Sequence record: MW822007.1
From: Escherichia phage BF15
Length of the DNA stretch: 64,000 bases
Reading direction: 5' to 3' (one strand)
The position numbers and the translations under genes were made by a program. This document shows, in pieces, positions 7,426 through 28,902 of the stretch (positions are counted from its first letter, which is position 1; each line of letters starts with the position of its first letter). The notes below the pieces were generated by a model. That model saw nothing but the letters and a program-made list of their open reading frames with translations. It made no database searches and was not told the origin of the DNA.

Positions 7426-7944
7426 TTAATAACCTCGGTCTTGACGAGCGAAATTTTCAGCATTTTTCAGATAATAAAGTTTAAAGATTTCTTCAGCCGT
7501 AAGACCGAGGCCTTGGAACATGTTCAGAACGAAATGAAGAATATCAATCATTTCGAATTTAATTTCCAACTGGTCTTGTGGAGACAAATCAGTAATCAGA
7601 GTTTCACGTCGTTCACCATGTTGAGCTTTCCAAGGCTTCCATACAGCAGATGCATCTTTTTCACCATTGCTCATACCACCAAGAGAAGTCAGAAGTTCGC
7701 GGAATTCATCATCAATATAATCTTTCTGATTACGCAGCCAATCAACAACTTCACCTGCAGTAGCCAAATCATCAGGATGACGGTTATATTCAGGTTTATC
7801 TTTAGCTAAACGAATCTGCAGAGATTTCTGCATGTCAAGCATTACCTGCAGCGGGTCTTTTTCATCACCGAGAATATCCCAATATTCATTTTGAGCTTTA
7901 TCAGCGCCTTCAATCAGTTGACTACATTCGTTAAAGTAAGCCAT
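7426..7944 (-). CDS. 56: dCTPase/dUTPase gp56
   Basis: matches T4 gp56; start moved from 7959 to ATG 7944 (MAYFNEC...) with SD. Confidence 0.9.
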   Translation of the reverse strand: MAYFNECSQLIEGADKAQNEYWDILGDEKDPLQVMLDMQKSLQIRLAKDKPEYNRHPDDLATAGEVVDWLRNQKDYIDDEFRELLTSLGGMSNGEKDASAVWKPWKAQHGERRETLITDLSPQDQLEIKFEMIDILHFVLNMFQGLGLTAEEIFKLYYLKNAENFARQDRGY

Positions 7945-8004
7945 TATTTTTCCTTTCAATTCATCAATAAGTTAAATAATTATATCATTTGAGTATGTAA
8001 GCAA

Positions 8005-9344
<1,340 letters not shown>

Positions 9345-13490: not shown

Positions 13491-13853
13491 TTAAAAGAAT
13501 TTAAACTTTTTCTTTGACCTTTTATTAAATGCATCTTGTAGTTGCATTGTAATACATTTTTCTACATGAGGAGCTAACTCAGCTTTTCTTTCTTGGTCAA
13601 GAACAGCAAAGTCCATTACGACTTTTCCATCAACCCAATCTAATTTTGTCACATACACAATGTGCGTAGAACCGTCTTCTAGTTTAATGACAATCTCCTG
13701 GATAACATTTTCCATGGCAGATTTAATTATCTTAAGAGATTCATTAAAAAGACGTTCTTTTCTTTCTTCTTCCCCCTCCGAAGAGGGGGATTCGTCGATA
13801 ATTTCTAGATCTAAATCTAAATCATCTTTATTCATTAAATTCTTCCATATCAC
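13491..13853 (-). CDS. 40: gp40 head assembly protein
   Basis: 120 aa between 41 and uvsX as in T4. Confidence 0.6.
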   Translation of the reverse strand: MIWKNLMNKDDLDLDLEIIDESPSSEGEEERKERLFNESLKIIKSAMENVIQEIVIKLEDGSTHIVYVTKLDWVDGKVVMDFAVLDQERKAELAPHVEKCITMQLQDAFNKRSKKKFKFF

Positions 13854-15009
13854 TTAACTGATCTAGGTCAGTTTCTAAATCAGCTGCTGATTTACTTTTA
13901 CTTTCTGGAGATTTAAATTTTTCAACCTTTGAGTTAATCAATTCATCAACTTCAGCTTCAACAATTTCATTACTATCAATAGCACCTAATTGATAAGCAC
14001 GTTTAATAGCATCTCGGAATGGCTGATGCTTAAATAAAGGACCCCAGAATGTAGTGCAGTTGGTATCTTTTGCACGCCAAGATTTTTCTTCGCGAATCAT
14101 CTCGCCAGTTTCTTCGTCAAGAAATTCACGAGCATACCAGCCATTTTTAGGTTTTACAACAAATCCTAATTCTAGAGCCATATCTAACAATCCAGAATAA
14201 GGATCGATACCACCGTCAAATTTAACATCAATAAAGAATTTACTTTTTTCTTTAACGGTACGAGATTTTTCTACATTTAGAACAAATTGATACCCCTGAA
14301 GATCAGAACCATCTTTAATCTGACGCTTACCGATAATGAATACTGTATCAGCCGAATACATTACGCCTGTACCACCTGTCATCACGGTTTTACTAAACAT
14401 TTCAATTGTTTCAATTGTATGGTTAACCGCAACACATGGAATATTTTTAATGCTAAAGTAAGGAGTAACAATACGGAATAATGACTTCAGTGATTTAGCA
14501 CGAGTCATATCTGCCACAGATTTTTCATTCAAGGCATCTTCCGTTTCTTTCTTAGAAGCCATATTACCGATTGAGTCGATGAATACAATAACTTTTTCAC
14601 CGCGCTCGATAGCTTCAAGCTGATTCACCATATCAATTTTCAGTTGTTCAACTGACTGGATTGGTGTATGAATTACTCGTTCCGGGTCAACTCCCATGGA
14701 TCGCAAATAAGCTGGAGTAATACCAAATTCGCTATCATAAAATAGACAAACCGCGTCAGGATATTTGTTCAAATACGCCGCAACCATAGTCAAAGACATA
14801 TTTGATTTAAAGTGTTTAGAAGGACCTGCGAAAATAGTTAAACCAGACTGCATACCGCCATCAATCGCACCAGAAATAGCAATATTAAGCATTGGGATTT
14901 TTGTACGGATTACATCCTTTTCATTAAAGAATTTAGATGTAGTCAGTTCAGCAGTCATTTTAGAAGTGGAAGCTTTAATCAAACGGGATTTTAAATCTGC
15001 AATAGACAT
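13828..15009 (-). CDS. uvsX: UvsX recombinase (RecA-like)
   Basis: 393 aa; strong match to T4 UvsX with a diverged N-terminus. Confidence 0.95.
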   Translation of the reverse strand: MSIADLKSRLIKASTSKMTAELTTSKFFNEKDVIRTKIPMLNIAISGAIDGGMQSGLTIFAGPSKHFKSNMSLTMVAAYLNKYPDAVCLFYDSEFGITPAYLRSMGVDPERVIHTPIQSVEQLKIDMVNQLEAIERGEKVIVFIDSIGNMASKKETEDALNEKSVADMTRAKSLKSLFRIVTPYFSIKNIPCVAVNHTIETIEMFSKTVMTGGTGVMYSADTVFIIGKRQIKDGSDLQGYQFVLNVEKSRTVKEKSKFFIDVKFDGGIDPYSGLLDMALELGFVVKPKNGWYAREFLDEETGEMIREEKSWRAKDTNCTTFWGPLFKHQPFRDAIKRAYQLGAIDSNEIVEAEVDELINSKVEKFKSPESKSKSAADLETDLDQLSDMEEFNE

Positions 15010-15086: not shown

Positions 15087-15929
15087 TTAATTAACTGCTA
15101 TTGGATGAATAGCATTAAACTTATGAAATGCTTCTGATTTTTCTTTACGCGAAACACACATGCGAAGAACCTTTAATGGCTCGTCTTCTTCACCCAACGA
15201 TTTTCTCTTTTCAATATTCGATGTTTTCCAATGAGCTTGCTCTGGAAACTCTCTATTGATTTGCTCAAGCGCTCTATTATGTTTAGAATTACTACGAATT
15301 GAACTACACCCACCGGGAGCGTGTGATTTTCCAGATACAACTAGATATTTGAACAAGGCCAAATGCGGATAACCTTGATTAATTAAATTGAGAAATGCAT
15401 ACATATCTTCGCATAAATCAATTTTTCCATACCCAATTTGTTCTGTCGTAAGTTTTCCGAGGTCATACCATGTATTCGTGAATCCGTATGAATTTTCACG
15501 ATAATTACCCCAAGATGAAGTAATTTTAAAAATAGGTAGACGAGCATGGCCATGATAATACCCACAATCCATGGCATCTTCAACGTATTGAATTAATTCA
15601 TAGAACTGTTCACGAGTTAATTGATTAATTTTATCTACGCGCCGTTTATCGTCTCTCTTTCGTATTGAACTCATACGAATAGTAGTATCATCGTCAATCA
15701 TCCAGATTCGTTGACCTGCATACATATCAGTAATTGCTTTACGAGTACCGGCAATTCCATTAACATCATCAGGAATAGTTACAATTTTAGCTCTAGACCC
15801 ATAGGCATCATAATAAGCTTTTTCTTCATGTTCACGCACTACAATATGGGGTTCATAATCAGTCGGAAACATATCAAGGGCAGAAACTGCCCCGACACGT
15901 TGATAACTTGGAATTACAAATTGAATCAT
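15087..15929 (-). CDS. glycosyltransferase at the beta-gt locus (possibly T2/T6-type beta-alpha glucosyltransferase)
   Basis: 280 aa; DxD-like motif IDDD; unlike T4 beta-gt (351 aa) as recalled. Confidence 0.5.
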   Translation of the reverse strand: MIQFVIPSYQRVGAVSALDMFPTDYEPHIVVREHEEKAYYDAYGSRAKIVTIPDDVNGIAGTRKAITDMYAGQRIWMIDDDTTIRMSSIRKRDDKRRVDKINQLTREQFYELIQYVEDAMDCGYYHGHARLPIFKITSSWGNYRENSYGFTNTWYDLGKLTTEQIGYGKIDLCEDMYAFLNLINQGYPHLALFKYLVVSGKSHAPGGCSSIRSNSKHNRALEQINREFPEQAHWKTSNIEKRKSLGEEDEPLKVLRMCVSRKEKSEAFHKFNAIHPIAVN

Positions 15930-16567
15930 TTAAGTGCCTTACATTTGTCAAAATGGTATCTTGTCATATTTGGCCCACGTCCTTTTAGTCCGCAATGCGG
16001 ACATATTTTTTCTATCAAATTATGAGGTTTTCCTTTACGATTTTTAGACATCGTTTCTTTAATTATTTTAGCTTTTTCTGCGCCAAAAATTTCTTCATAA
16101 GTTTTACCAGAATTTTCCTTTGCTCGATTTATAATTCCATATGCCTGCTCATTTTTACCATACATTGGATTACCTTCGCCTTTCATTCTTTTAGAATGAT
16201 CAGGACGCTTGATTCCACGAAAGGCATTTCCGCACTTATATCTTTCTTCTGGAGATAGTTTTTTACCGTACATTCCATTTAATTTGCCTGGAAAACTTCC
16301 TCCCCATGCTTCATTCTTTAAATTATATGAATCCGGACAATTAGCAGCATCTAAACAAGTTAAAATAATTTCTTCAACCTGTCTAAACATTGGTCCTTCA
16401 TATAATATTTCTTTATTAAAGGATTTTATTCCATATTTCTTTTTAGCATGTTGCCAAACTACACCCGAACCATCATAATTCGGGTTGTGACCATCATGAC
16501 TTCCTATATACCACTTTTTAGTTTTAGGATGTTTATACTTATAAACATGTGGCACATTTACTTCCAT
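15926..16567 (-). CDS. GIY-YIG homing endonuclease (Seg-like)
   Basis: 213 aa; N-terminal KWYIGSHDG...YDGSG GIY-YIG motifs; basic C-terminal region with a Cys pair (CPHCG). Confidence 0.7.
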   Translation of the reverse strand: MEVNVPHVYKYKHPKTKKWYIGSHDGHNPNYDGSGVVWQHAKKKYGIKSFNKEILYEGPMFRQVEEIILTCLDAANCPDSYNLKNEAWGGSFPGKLNGMYGKKLSPEERYKCGNAFRGIKRPDHSKRMKGEGNPMYGKNEQAYGIINRAKENSGKTYEEIFGAEKAKIIKETMSKNRKGKPHNLIEKICPHCGLKGRGPNMTRYHFDKCKALK

Positions 16568-17298
16568 TTTCCAGTATAATCCTTTTTAGCAATATGAGTC
16601 TCACCGGTGTTCCACCAATGGTCAACTAAATAAAACTGATTTTCGTACACATGAAGACTTCCAACGTTCCATATAATAGAACCTGCTTTATATTGCCGCG
16701 ATGGGTCGCCTGCATTCAAATCAGATACTAATTTATCTAGTACGTATTTTTGCCAAGCATAATCATTACGATAGCCTGCCCAGCAATCATTGCTTCTCAT
16801 GCTAACAACCGCATTGACTTTCTTATCACGAATCAGGTACTGTACTGTATTCGTACACATGAAATCTGACATACCATCTTTATTGTAGTCAAACTGCATA
16901 GATGGACGAGTATAAATCATGATACCGCGCCGAGAATCAGGATTTTGACCAAGTTCAGCTAAACACATATCATACTGGGCATAGTTATCTTCTGACCAGA
17001 TGGCCCAACCATAATTTGAGTTAATTTCGCCTTTAGAAGATGCTACCTGCTGCCAAATCTTGGGTGTTTCACCTGGAATATCTTTAACAAACAGACTTTG
17101 AGACTTATACCATTCAAGTTCACGCTGAATGTATTCATCATTAAGAGCGCCAAAAATAAAAGGTTCATCTGCTACAAATGATGCACCAATAATTTCAATA
17201 GTTTTAACACCGGTTTTATCAATTACGAAATCTTTTTCCTTTAATGCAAGACCCAAATCAAGACGGATTTCTTCAACTGTCATATAATCGTTAATCAT
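16558..17298 (-). CDS. 42: dCMP hydroxymethylase gp42
   Basis: 246 aa; matches T4 gp42 as recalled. Confidence 0.95.
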   Translation of the reverse strand: MINDYMTVEEIRLDLGLALKEKDFVIDKTGVKTIEIIGASFVADEPFIFGALNDEYIQRELEWYKSQSLFVKDIPGETPKIWQQVASSKGEINSNYGWAIWSEDNYAQYDMCLAELGQNPDSRRGIMIYTRPSMQFDYNKDGMSDFMCTNTVQYLIRDKKVNAVVSMRSNDCWAGYRNDYAWQKYVLDKLVSDLNAGDPSRQYKAGSIIWNVGSLHVYENQFYLVDHWWNTGETHIAKKDYTGKWK

Positions 17299-17710: not shown

Positions 17711-18091
17711 TCACTTAGTCAAATTTTTTACACATGAATTATAAGAATTTACTACATACTCCATCGGAGCATTTTTACCGGTACGCCATTGGTAATTATT
17801 AGCCCAATTAGCCCAAATTTCGGCGCAGTAGTTTTCAATTTTTTCTTCACGTGTAATCACATCTGAATTACGATATGCTTGAGCAGATTCATCTGGACGA
17901 ATAGCTTCGTCAAAATTCGCCTGCATTTGTTCTACTGTCTGTTTTGGAGCTTCTTTATAACACTTAACATTAGGATTATAAAATTTGCTTGAACAGTTTA
18001 CAATTTTTCCTACATCAGATTGATTTACTACCGGTCCTTGAGCTACACAACCAGTAAGACCCAATGCAATAACCAAAATAGCGATTTTCAT
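17711..18091 (-). CDS. predicted lipoprotein
   Basis: ORF-track ORF trimmed to ATG 18091 (GGAG SD); lipobox LTGC; upstream part of track ORF is promoter read-through. Confidence 0.55.
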   Translation of the reverse strand: MKIAILVIALGLTGCVAQGPVVNQSDVGKIVNCSSKFYNPNVKCYKEAPKQTVEQMQANFDEAIRPDESAQAYRNSDVITREEKIENYCAEIWANWANNYQWRTGKNAPMEYVVNSYNSCVKNLTK

Positions 18092-18125
18092 TTCATTCTC
18101 CAAATCCGTATCAGTTGATAGTTGT

Positions 18126-18155
18126 ATAGTACCATGGAAAAACAGGGATGTAAAC
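18126..18155 (-). promoter_or_regulatory. T4-type early promoter (lipoprotein gene)
   Basis: minus strand GTTTAC-N18-TACTAT; member of a conserved promoter-leader repeat family. Confidence 0.6.
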
Positions 18156-18238
18156 CATTTTGTGAAAAAATTTTTAATGAATTCCAGAGGTCGAGAATCA
18201 TCTGTTTTTCCTAAGTATAGATTTATATTACTTGTATG

Positions 18239-18259
18239 AAAAAGGGACCCGGAGGTCCC
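18239..18259 (-). terminator. intrinsic terminator after gene 43
   Basis: hairpin GGGACC-UCCG-GGUCCC plus U run. Confidence 0.6.
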
Positions 18260-18272
18260 TAGATTTATTCTA

Positions 18273-20969
18273 TCAGCCAAACAGGAAGTCTAACGAAGCT
18301 TTTTCTTCATAGTCCATACCCGCTGATTCACACATACCCGCAAGCGGTTTAACAAACGATTTTTGGAACAAAGTTGAGTAGTCAATCCAAGACAGTACAT
18401 CAGAACGAATTTCTTTTGGAAGTTCCGTACCCGACGGCCAAGCAATGCACTTGTCACCAAATGGATTTCCCTCACGTAATGGAAGAACCATTACCTTATT
18501 TCCATCCAAAATTGGAGCTACACCTAAACCGTTAACAGCTCGACGATAAGTTAGCACCCCACGAATGTGGAACGGGCATTTAAATCCTGGCCAACCTTTA
18601 TCATCATATTTCGCTATATCATTCGCAGTTTTTACTTCAGCAATAACTTTATAGTCAAGTTGACGATATTCTTTCTCAAAGTTCTTATAGTATTCTTGGA
18701 CAGACTCTTCACCTTCCTGAAGAATACGACGAATACTTTCTTCGAGAGCTTCTTGTACTGCTTTTGGTGTTGAACTCTGCTGAGTTTCCATACCCATGAT
18801 TTTTAGATGCGGTTCAGCAAATCGTTTATCTTCCATATCATAAACGTTCAGAGCATAACGTTTTTTCGCTTTCCAAAATCCACCAACACCCTTTGAACCA
18901 AGCGGAGGACAAGAAATAGCTTCACGGTCCATATGCATCAGATGCTCGCGGTTATTCATATAATCACATAACTCACGATATGCAACATCAATCATAGGTT
19001 CCATCTTTTTCTTACCGAACTGATTCATGAATTCAACTAAATCATTTTGTTCTTTAAAGCGGTCAAGACCTACTTTTTCAATAACTTTATCTACGCAAAC
19101 ATATACAGAATCAGTATCACCTGCTGCGATGAAATCTTCACCATCAGTTCCACACACTTTATTCAGGTATTCATTAATTTTACGAGCAATCCACTGAATA
19201 CCAACTTGACCAAAAATTGTGATAGCAGTAGCATTTCGCAAATCATAGTAACGGAAATGAATATTACCAAGAGCACCATAAAGACTGTTAATAAGAATTT
19301 TACGGTTCAGCTGATTTGTGTTAGCAAGTGTAGCTGCTTTTTCACATTCTTCGATCAGACTATTAAGAACAGATTCGGTGTAATTCGATAATTCATTTAA
19401 GAAATCATCATTGAACTTAACATATCGTTCAACTTCTGGTTTAGTTGAACAAGACCCTGCGCCTTTCATAATAATCTTTTTAATAGCTTCGGCATTCATT
19501 TCTTCGGCGAACATTTTCTTTTTCCAATCTTTGCGTTGGAAAAATACTTTAGCGATTTCCTTTGGAATGATACCTTCTTGATGCTTATCATACATCCATC
19601 CATTCGGAGAACATGAATACTCATCACTTGGCTTAGGAGCTGTTCCTGCGATATATTCATGAATTGGATGAACTTTGAACTGTCCGCGAATAGTCTCAGG
19701 ACTAATGTTAACCTGACGAATAATGCTAGGATACAGAGACGTCAAGTCAAAACTCATAATGTATCGACGTGCAATCGGTTTAGGTTCAAATACAAATGCA
19801 CCTGGAAAACTTTGTTTAACGTGCGAACCTTGTTGAGGAATAACCTTATGTTCACCTTTCAACGAGTTAAAAATAATAGCATCCCAAGTTTTAATAGGAC
19901 TCATTACGCCAGAAAAAGGCATTTTAGCATAATAAGACATACTTAAAACTAGATCGATAAACCCACGAATTTTATCAATTGCTTGAACTGATTCTACGTC
20001 AATGATGTTATAACTAATGTATCGTTGATGATTAGTTTCACGAAGTTTATTAATAGGACCGTCGTACGGCAATTTACCTTTTTTGGTTTCGTGCTGAGCA
20101 ACTGATTCCAAAGAGAATGATGGCAAATTAGTAAATGCGAATTTCTTGTACAAATCTAAATAATCAAGAATAGATACGCCGTCAATAGAATAAATTTCTT
20201 TGCTACCATACATATTTTGAATTAGTTTAGATTTTACTCGACCGATTGGAGAGAAGCGTTTCATACTGCGTTCACCGAGAACCATTTTAACGCGATTCAT
20301 GATATACGGAACGTCAAATCCCTCAATATTCCAACCGGTAAAAATAGCAGGTCGTTTCTGTTCCCAGAGATTAATATATTCCATGAGCATATCACGCTCA
20401 TTATCGAATGGCATATAAATTACTCGGTCAAGAATTTCTTGAGGAACTTCATCACCACCTTCACAGTCAAGTTTAGCAGCTAACTTTGCATCCCATTTTG
20501 ATACTGAACCGTACATTGAATTCAACAAATCAAAGACGTAAAAACGGTCGTCAATTGAATCATAATGAGTGATAGCATCAATTTCATATTCTGCTTTCAT
20601 TGGGTCAGGAAATTTATCACCAGTAACCTCAATGTCGCAGTTAGCTACACGAACAAATTTTCGGTCATAAACAATTTCTGAACCATACGTATCACTGATA
20701 TAAGCGAGTTTAAAATCGTTCATACCAAGAGCTTCGAGACCGATGTCTTCCATTCGTTTCATCCAATCTCTGGCATCTTTCATTGATGGAAATTTTTGAG
20801 GAGCACAATTTTTACCATAAATGTCTTTGTATTTTGACTCTTCCTTACAATGCCTAAACATAGTCGGAAGATATTCTACTTCACGAGTACGTTCCTTTCC
20901 GTTTTCATCAATATAACGTTCAACAATGTTATTTCCGACTGTTTCAATAGAGATATAAAATTCTTTCAT
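18273..20969 (-). CDS. 43: DNA polymerase gp43 (family B)
   Basis: 898 aa; matches T4 gp43; operator hairpin upstream. Confidence 0.97.
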   Translation of the reverse strand: MKEFYISIETVGNNIVERYIDENGKERTREVEYLPTMFRHCKEESKYKDIYGKNCAPQKFPSMKDARDWMKRMEDIGLEALGMNDFKLAYISDTYGSEIVYDRKFVRVANCDIEVTGDKFPDPMKAEYEIDAITHYDSIDDRFYVFDLLNSMYGSVSKWDAKLAAKLDCEGGDEVPQEILDRVIYMPFDNERDMLMEYINLWEQKRPAIFTGWNIEGFDVPYIMNRVKMVLGERSMKRFSPIGRVKSKLIQNMYGSKEIYSIDGVSILDYLDLYKKFAFTNLPSFSLESVAQHETKKGKLPYDGPINKLRETNHQRYISYNIIDVESVQAIDKIRGFIDLVLSMSYYAKMPFSGVMSPIKTWDAIIFNSLKGEHKVIPQQGSHVKQSFPGAFVFEPKPIARRYIMSFDLTSLYPSIIRQVNISPETIRGQFKVHPIHEYIAGTAPKPSDEYSCSPNGWMYDKHQEGIIPKEIAKVFFQRKDWKKKMFAEEMNAEAIKKIIMKGAGSCSTKPEVERYVKFNDDFLNELSNYTESVLNSLIEECEKAATLANTNQLNRKILINSLYGALGNIHFRYYDLRNATAITIFGQVGIQWIARKINEYLNKVCGTDGEDFIAAGDTDSVYVCVDKVIEKVGLDRFKEQNDLVEFMNQFGKKKMEPMIDVAYRELCDYMNNREHLMHMDREAISCPPLGSKGVGGFWKAKKRYALNVYDMEDKRFAEPHLKIMGMETQQSSTPKAVQEALEESIRRILQEGEESVQEYYKNFEKEYRQLDYKVIAEVKTANDIAKYDDKGWPGFKCPFHIRGVLTYRRAVNGLGVAPILDGNKVMVLPLREGNPFGDKCIAWPSGTELPKEIRSDVLSWIDYSTLFQKSFVKPLAGMCESAGMDYEEKASLDFLFG

Positions 20970-27699: not shown

Positions 27700-28902
27700 T
27701 TATTTTGTAATAATGTCAAACTGTTCTTTAAAGCAGAAGCTTGAATCTTGATGCTGATACAAAAATTCATAAGCTTTTTCACGTTCACGGTCATAAAGAG
27801 CTCGGTCAGATGACAGTTCTTTAATACGCTCAAATGTTGATTCCATGTCATTTTCATCAAACCAAACGATACCGCTATCGTGTGAAATTAATGGAGTATT
27901 ATCAACACGGAATTTTAAATTTTCGCCAGTAGATTTCCAAAATACTGGAATTGTTCCACATGCACCAAGCTCGAGATGAGTGTATTCTAAAGAACGTTGT
28001 AGATATTTTTTATCTAATTTACTCAGCTGATAACCAAATCCGGATTTACTCATGCGTTCAAGCATTTCGCTATTTACATAACGGTCGAGAATTTGCGTTG
28101 GCAAATTAGGAGCAATTTTAATTTGGTCTACTTGATGAAGACGATAATACTCGTATGGAATTCCTTTTTCTTTAATAGGAATGAACGCTGGAGAACGTTC
28201 CAGACCTTCCATAATAGTACTTAGTCCTGCAGGTTTAAGATGTTTTTCGTGAAAATCAAACATCTGATAAAAACCTTTCCATGTAGTAGTACGACCAATC
28301 CAACGATTGATATTCATGTTAATTTCAGAAACATCTTTCCAGTAGGTTGATCGAACCTTCGCAATATCCATAGGAGGCTGAAAGTTATATACGGTCGGTG
28401 CTTCTTCAATATCATCAAACAGAGAAACAGTTTCCGGATACCATTCTTTCATTAAAACTTTATTAAAATCACCATTATCAGAATGGCTAAAAATAACATC
28501 AGCTCGACGAACAGTTTCTTCTAATCCCAAATTTCGACGCAAAGAAAGAGAAGAATGGTCATGCTGATAAACTACAACACGAACCGAAGGTTTAATGTTA
28601 TCAATAATTTTTTTATAGTTATTAATTGTGTCTTCTTCAACTGAAGTAGCAGGAACTGAATTGATAATTAGAATATCACAATCATTTACCAGCTTAAGCG
28701 TTTTATCGTATTCTTTTGCCAATAAAACCGGAATTGAAAATGATTTATAATCATGCGCGCAATTACGGGTAAATGATTTATCTTTAGCATAAACCAAAGT
28801 TACTTCATGACCATTTTTAATAAACCAATCACGCTGCTCAAGAGAAAATTTAGTTACGCCGCAACCTTCAAGACCTCGAGCCATAAAAATACATACTTTC
28901 AT
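27700..28902 (-). CDS. agt: alpha-glucosyltransferase
   Basis: 400 aa; N-terminus ...CIFMARGLEGCGVTKFSLEQRDWF matches T4 alpha-gt as recalled. Confidence 0.9.
   Translation of the reverse strand: MKVCIFMARGLEGCGVTKFSLEQRDWFIKNGHEVTLVYAKDKSFTRNCAHDYKSFSIPVLLAKEYDKTLKLVNDCDILIINSVPATSVEEDTINNYKKIIDNIKPSVRVVVYQHDHSSLSLRRNLGLEETVRRADVIFSHSDNGDFNKVLMKEWYPETVSLFDDIEEAPTVYNFQPPMDIAKVRSTYWKDVSEINMNINRWIGRTTTWKGFYQMFDFHEKHLKPAGLSTIMEGLERSPAFIPIKEKGIPYEYYRLHQVDQIKIAPNLPTQILDRYVNSEMLERMSKSGFGYQLSKLDKKYLQRSLEYTHLELGACGTIPVFWKSTGENLKFRVDNTPLISHDSGIVWFDENDMESTFERIKELSSDRALYDREREKAYEFLYQHQDSSFCFKEQFDIITK

Follow-up and report, generated by a model that had tools for sequence, protein, structure and literature searches.

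A T2/T6-type beta-glucosyl-HMC-alpha-glucosyltransferase gene very probably occupies the beta-gt position in Escherichia phage BF15

A 280-aa ORF located at the position of T4 beta-gt in Escherichia phage BF15 very probably encodes a T2/T6-type beta-glucosyl-HMC-alpha-glucosyltransferase (ba-gt, also termed g-gt or TAGT), a GT-A enzyme with a DxD motif that would give gentiobiosyl hmC by the pathway proposed below. The analysis covered a single stretch of 64,000 nucleotides (MW822007.1), referred to as the window, out of a genome of about 168 kb. The assignment is based on orthology, synteny, fold, motif residues, the presence of pathway partners and the absence of a beta-gt in the window; the chemistry of the enzyme, the roles of individual catalytic residues and the extent of the modification are the parts of the explanation that we infer. 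This gene has been described before, as have its product and distribution, and nothing is new in this copy. The T2 and T6 genes were reportedly cloned decades ago (in a paper from 1993), and the link between the ba-gt gene and its function rests on later deletion studies and on the annotations of sequence records.

The ba-gt protein matched the Pfam family PF20691 (TET-associated glycosyltransferase, TAGT) over profile positions 2–205 of 205 with 39.1 bits, compared to a gathering cutoff of 27.5 bits, and this was the sole Pfam family reported for the ORF. Besides, PHROG 842 ('beta-glucosyl-HMC-alpha-glucosyltransferase', the name under which many RefSeq records annotate ba-gt) matched the protein at E = 1.5e-87, and no matching model was found in NCBIfam. 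A tblastn search of 50,697 phage records showed that 688 contained a match to ba-gt, which in 684 of them covered at least 80% of the protein. The proteins of Escherichia phage vB_Eco_Geo (Geo) and of Yersinia phage PST were each 99.3% identical to it. The protein also showed high similarity to the TB37 protein (96.8% identity), to the T2 orthologue (LC348380, annotated b-gt; 96.1% over 280 aa, 11 differences) and to the T6 orthologue (MH550421, ggt; 95.4% over the full length, 12 differences), and a second tier of homologues with about 64% identity was present in T4-like phages of Klebsiella, Enterobacter and Cronobacter. The first-pass annotation had suggested a T2/T6-type transferase, and this is supported by the 95–96% full-length identity together with PHROG 842, PF20691 and the predicted GT-A fold.

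The homologue set comprised 11 sequences from the first protein-database search and 51 after the profile search, and an alignment of 49 sequences was used. An AlphaFold2 model of ba-gt based on this alignment (mean pLDDT 92, pTM 0.90) showed alternating strands and helices, in which strand 74–78 is followed at once by D79–D81. The fold prediction, which had been proposed as a check, thus gave a GT-A fold with the DxD motif at the classical position after the fourth strand, and in the model the protein has the features that characterize PF20691. The residues R11, R63, D79, D80 and D81 were invariant across all 49 TAGT homologues and others were nearly so (R212 in 47/49, D175 in 43/49 and G206–G207 in 43/49); the window ba-gt keeps all of these invariant and near-invariant residues. 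A PDB sequence search found no solved structure for any TAGT member, and the roles of the ba-gt residues are therefore modelled. Judged from GT-A enzymology and the model, D79–D81 most probably bind the UDP pyrophosphate together with a divalent metal, and the catalytic base is likely E174/D175. The idea that ba-gt might be a pseudogene was ruled out by the full-length ORF and by the retention of all family-invariant residues.

Some of the T2 and T6 reference records were found to carry apparent lesions in the gene. All three T2 records (LC348380, MH751506, and AP018813) have R11H at ba-gt codon 11. The T6 record MH550421 contains a stop at codon 10 (2528–2530 of the compared segment), and its CDS is annotated from M20 with a length of 261 aa. 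The T6 record AP018814 (gene at 1635–2474 of the compared segment) shows an in-frame loss of one Asp from the invariant DDD, giving 279 aa. The lesions in these two independent T6 records are odd, T6 being the textbook phage for gentiobiosyl DNA, and they may represent stock mutations or sequencing errors.

In the ORF listing, ba-gt starts with ATG and extends over 15087..15929 on the minus strand. The 280-aa length and the IDDD motif described in the first-pass annotation were both recovered, the motif corresponding to residues 78–81 within WMIDDDTTI of the translation. Directly downstream of ba-gt lies uvsX (393 aa, 13828..15009), and upstream follow, in order, a 213-aa ORF (15926..16567), gene 42 (16558..17298), imm and gene 43, with the start codon of ba-gt overlapping the stop codon of the upstream ORF (ATGA). 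The corresponding order in T4 (NC_000866) is 41, 40, uvsX, segA, beta-gt (1056 nt), 42, imm, imm.1, 43; the T4 record also gives 351 aa for beta-gt, the length stated in the first-pass annotation. The claim that the ORF occupies the beta-gt locus between uvsX and gene 42 holds in that the slot is syntenic with T4 beta-gt, but gene 42 is not the immediate neighbour of the ORF, as the 213-aa Seg-like ORF intervenes. The 1.8 kb surrounding ba-gt showed 98–99% DNA identity to many Tequatrovirus genomes, and the initial 25 kb of the window were about 96–97% identical to phages including HY03 and MLP2. Because of this DNA identity to HY03, MLP2 and other Tequatrovirus genomes, the window is regarded as typical of Tequatrovirus.

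A promoter scan around ba-gt gave a background level of consensus matches (13 compared to 12.5 expected), and a scan for terminator-like sites found three in the region compared to 1.2 expected. Within codons 13–18, at the 5′ end of ba-gt (15893..15877, minus strand), lies a GC-rich hairpin (GGGGCAG-TTT-CTGCCCT) with a T-rich run after it. This intragenic hairpin is terminator-like and conserved in both T2 and Geo; it may be regulatory or due to chance. At the position of imm.1, between imm and gene 43, an ORF at 17711..18280 (minus strand) was found to have a Met inside it, after which comes a signal sequence of the lipoprotein type (MKIAILVIALGLTGC). The TTG listed as the start of this ORF is probably too far upstream, and its product is probably a small lipoprotein.

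The 213-aa ORF (minus strand) was identified as a Seg-like GIY-YIG homing-endonuclease ORF, which stands outside the glucosylation pathway; it matched PHROG 314 at E = 1.8e-31 and T4 SegA with 32% identity (E = 5e-9), and scored below the cutoff for TIGR01453. It is placed exactly between gene 42 and ba-gt, overlapping the end of gene 42 by 10 nt and the start of ba-gt by ATGA. The ORF is absent from T2, T6 and Geo, where gene 42 and ba-gt overlap directly by ATGA. The 3′ end of gene 42 was diverged beside the insertion, as expected for a homing co-conversion tract.

Three genes encoding partners of ba-gt in the proposed pathway were found in the window. The DNA alpha-glucosyltransferase gene alpha-gt (400 aa, 27700..28902, minus strand) matched the T4 alpha-GT structures (PDB 1XV5/1Y6F) at E = 5e-257 and PHROG 2888 at E = 4e-222. 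The product of gene 42 (minus strand), a dCMP hydroxymethylase of 246 aa belonging to PF00303, showed 92% identity to T4 gp42 (E = 2e-176). An NTP pyrophosphohydrolase is encoded at 7426..7959 (minus strand; PHROG 173, E = 3e-46), and its position and family indicate that it is probably the gp56 dCTPase/dUTPase, the upstream pathway step keeping dCTP out of phage DNA. This gene adjoins a gene for a Dam-type DNA methyltransferase (8005..8784, minus strand; PHROG 56, E = 1.6e-69). Since alpha-gt, gene 42 and the NTP pyrophosphohydrolase gene are all encoded in the window, the alpha-glucosyl-hmC acceptor can be made. Within these 64 kb, ba-gt co-occurs with alpha-gt and the dCMP hydroxymethylase gene and without beta-gt. 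Such a combination of alpha-GT or beta-GT with TAGT is the majority arrangement, and alpha-GT and beta-GT are combined in just 6 of 753 glycosyltransferase-encoding phage genomes, so that the pairing known from T4 is a rarity (PMC13216743). In Tequatrovirus, alpha-GT with TAGT is the commonest combination.

According to the proposed mechanism, gp42 would generate hm-dCMP, the phage polymerase would put hm-dC in place of dC, and alpha-gt would use host UDP-glucose to glucosylate the hydroxymethyl group in alpha linkage. A second glucose would then be moved by ba-gt from UDP-glucose, with inversion, onto the 6-OH of the first glucose, and the product would be beta-1,6-glucosyl-alpha-glucosyl (gentiobiosyl) hmC. 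The beta-1,6 linkage and the alpha-glucosyl acceptor have been established for T2/T6 (PMC13216743; bioRxiv 10.64898/2026.02.25.707755; PMC11078745), and in the T6 ba-gt deletion mutant (delta-ba-gt) gentiobiosyl-hmC becomes alpha-glucosyl-hmC (PMC11078745). From the sequence, the phage DNA is predicted to contain gentiobiosyl-hmC and to lack beta-glucosyl-hmC, and in virion DNA bare hmC, alpha-glucosyl-hmC and gentiobiosyl-hmC would be expected to occur together.

Two other identities of the enzyme were considered. The one observation in favour of a highly diverged T4-type beta-glucosyltransferase kept at its locus is the shared slot between uvsX and gene 42, and we regard this explanation as extremely improbable. 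BLASTP of the ba-gt ORF against T4 beta-gt (NP_049658.1) gave chance fragments only (E > 4), a tblastn search of the complete 64-kb window with T4 beta-gt gave nothing better than E = 7, and a PDB sequence search with ba-gt at E <= 10 returned chance matches only (E > 1), with no beta-gt or alpha-gt chain. The lack of resemblance to T4 beta-gt, which the first-pass annotation had stated, was thus borne out. The predicted fold is GT-A, compared to GT-B for T4 beta-GT (PMC13216743), and neither sequence similarity to the T4 beta-gt family (PF09198, GT-B) nor its two-domain GT-B fold was found. BLASTP, the window tblastn and the GT-A model led to the rejection of a diverged T4 beta-gt. Homology to T4 beta-gt and a fold other than that of a glycosyltransferase had been named in advance as the two results that would speak against the annotation; no such homology was detected, and the predicted fold is that of a glycosyltransferase. 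A ba-gt acting as primary transferase on bare hmC, or with some other acceptor or sugar donor, is likewise very improbable. Activity on bare hmC is argued against by the classical alpha-gt mutants of T2 and T6, the DNA of which is said to be non-glucosylated despite an intact ba-gt. Another acceptor would fit the many distant TAGT homologues in phages without alpha-GT and beta-GT, which show that the family is not acceptor-restricted (PMC13216743), but a different acceptor or donor is very unlikely in an enzyme that is 95–99% identical to those of T2, T6 and Geo. Geo DNA gave glucose and gentiobiose adducts only (PMC13390438).

By analogy with related phages, the gentiobiosyl share of the phage DNA most likely falls within a range bounded by Geo (roughly 40%) and by TB37 and T6 (two-thirds or more). 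The best guess is a substantial gentiobiosyl fraction, because the protein is nearest to that of Geo and because the window, like Geo, has a Dam gene. LC-MS of natural Tequatroviruses with alpha-GT and TAGT showed about 40% alpha-gentiobiosyl-hmC in Geo DNA and a ratio of hmC, alpha-glucosyl and gentiobiosyl forms of about 1:2:2 in EL, BGP and Geo; TB37 and others contained about one-third hmC and about two-thirds (about 67%) gentiobiosyl-hmC (PMC13390438). The Dam-like gene sets the Geo/EL/BGP group (about 40% gentiobiosyl) apart from the TB37 group (about 67%) (Durham-collection paper).

It is unlikely that ba-gt belongs to the right family but is weakly active or weakly expressed, so that the DNA would be T2-like, consisting mostly of alpha-glucosyl-hmC with a few percent of gentiobiosyl-hmC. 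Weak activity has a precedent in T2, which has an orthologue and yet a gentiobiosyl share of about 5%, compared to about 72% in T6 (bioRxiv 10.64898/2026.02.25.707755; PMC11078745). However, the window ba-gt keeps R11 where all three T2 records have His, and it differs by only two residues from the protein of Geo, which reaches about 40% gentiobiosyl-hmC. The R11H substitution may be linked to the low gentiobiosylation of T2 as compared to T6. With respect to expression, the start of ba-gt overlaps the stop of the Seg-like ORF and not gene 42. The sequence upstream offers no more than a weak AAGG, and homing-endonuclease genes are usually poorly translated. Because its start overlaps a homing-endonuclease ORF instead of gene 42, expression of ba-gt could differ from that in T2, T6 and Geo. 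This arrangement is evidently tolerated, since a query including the Seg-like ORF was covered by at least 80% in at least 77 of 594 related phage records. A more general proposal, which we consider conceivable but rather doubtful, is that minor differences in allele and context at the ba-gt locus determine how far the DNA of T-even phages is gentiobiosylated. Candidate causes may be R11H in the T2 records and, in the window, the Seg-like insertion, which takes the place of the translational overlap between gene 42 and ba-gt. If this proposal is true, the present phage would show a distinctive gentiobiosyl level and thereby a distinctive defence-sensitivity profile.

The altered sensitivity to modification-dependent defence that the first-pass annotation had predicted for a gentiobiosylating phage is in line with experiments on T6 delta-ba-gt (PMC11078745; bioRxiv 10.64898/2026.02.25.707755). 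T6 DNA, which contains gentiobiosyl-hmC, is not degraded in vitro by the Brig1 glycosylase, and loss of ba-gt increases the sensitivity of T6 to this enzyme (PMC11078745). Gentiobiosyl-hmC withstands BapA, the deglucosylase of the Brig3 system, which is unable to free glucose from it (bioRxiv 10.64898/2026.02.25.707755). Besides, gentiobiosyl-modified cytosine is stated to be a target of GmrSD (PMC13216743), and BrxU cut the gentiobiosyl-containing genomic DNA of Geo and TB37 (PMC13390438). The assignment is of value for choosing or engineering therapeutic Tequatrovirus phages, and otherwise mainly for correct annotation.

Compared to known systems, the window ba-gt is most readily placed beside the proteins of T2 (BBC14657.1) and T6 (AXN58083.1), which are also 280 aa long, are encoded by a gene that follows gene 42 and precedes uvsX, and share with it the DDD motif and an alpha-gt partner. 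The T2 and T6 substitutions are reported to affect none of the family-invariant positions, residue 11 being R in the window protein and H in T2. The Geo glucosyltransferase (CAL1327742.1) differs from the window protein by H233R and N280D, and Geo, like the window, has a Dam-like methyltransferase. PF20691 as a family shares with the window ba-gt the GT-A fold and the invariant residues R11, R63 and DDD, but most of its members are just 20–30% identical and come from metagenomic phages, and some distant members are found in phages without alpha-GT and beta-GT, where they presumably act on other acceptors (PMC13216743). The location of the homing-endonuclease gene differs from T4, in which segA sits between uvsX and beta-gt, whereas the Seg-like ORF of the window is found between gene 42 and ba-gt. 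T4 beta-gt occupies the same genomic slot as the window ba-gt and, like ba-gt, uses UDP-glucose as donor, forms a beta linkage and has phage hmC DNA as substrate. It is nevertheless an unrelated GT-B protein of 351 aa, which acts on bare hmC and not on alpha-glucosyl-hmC.
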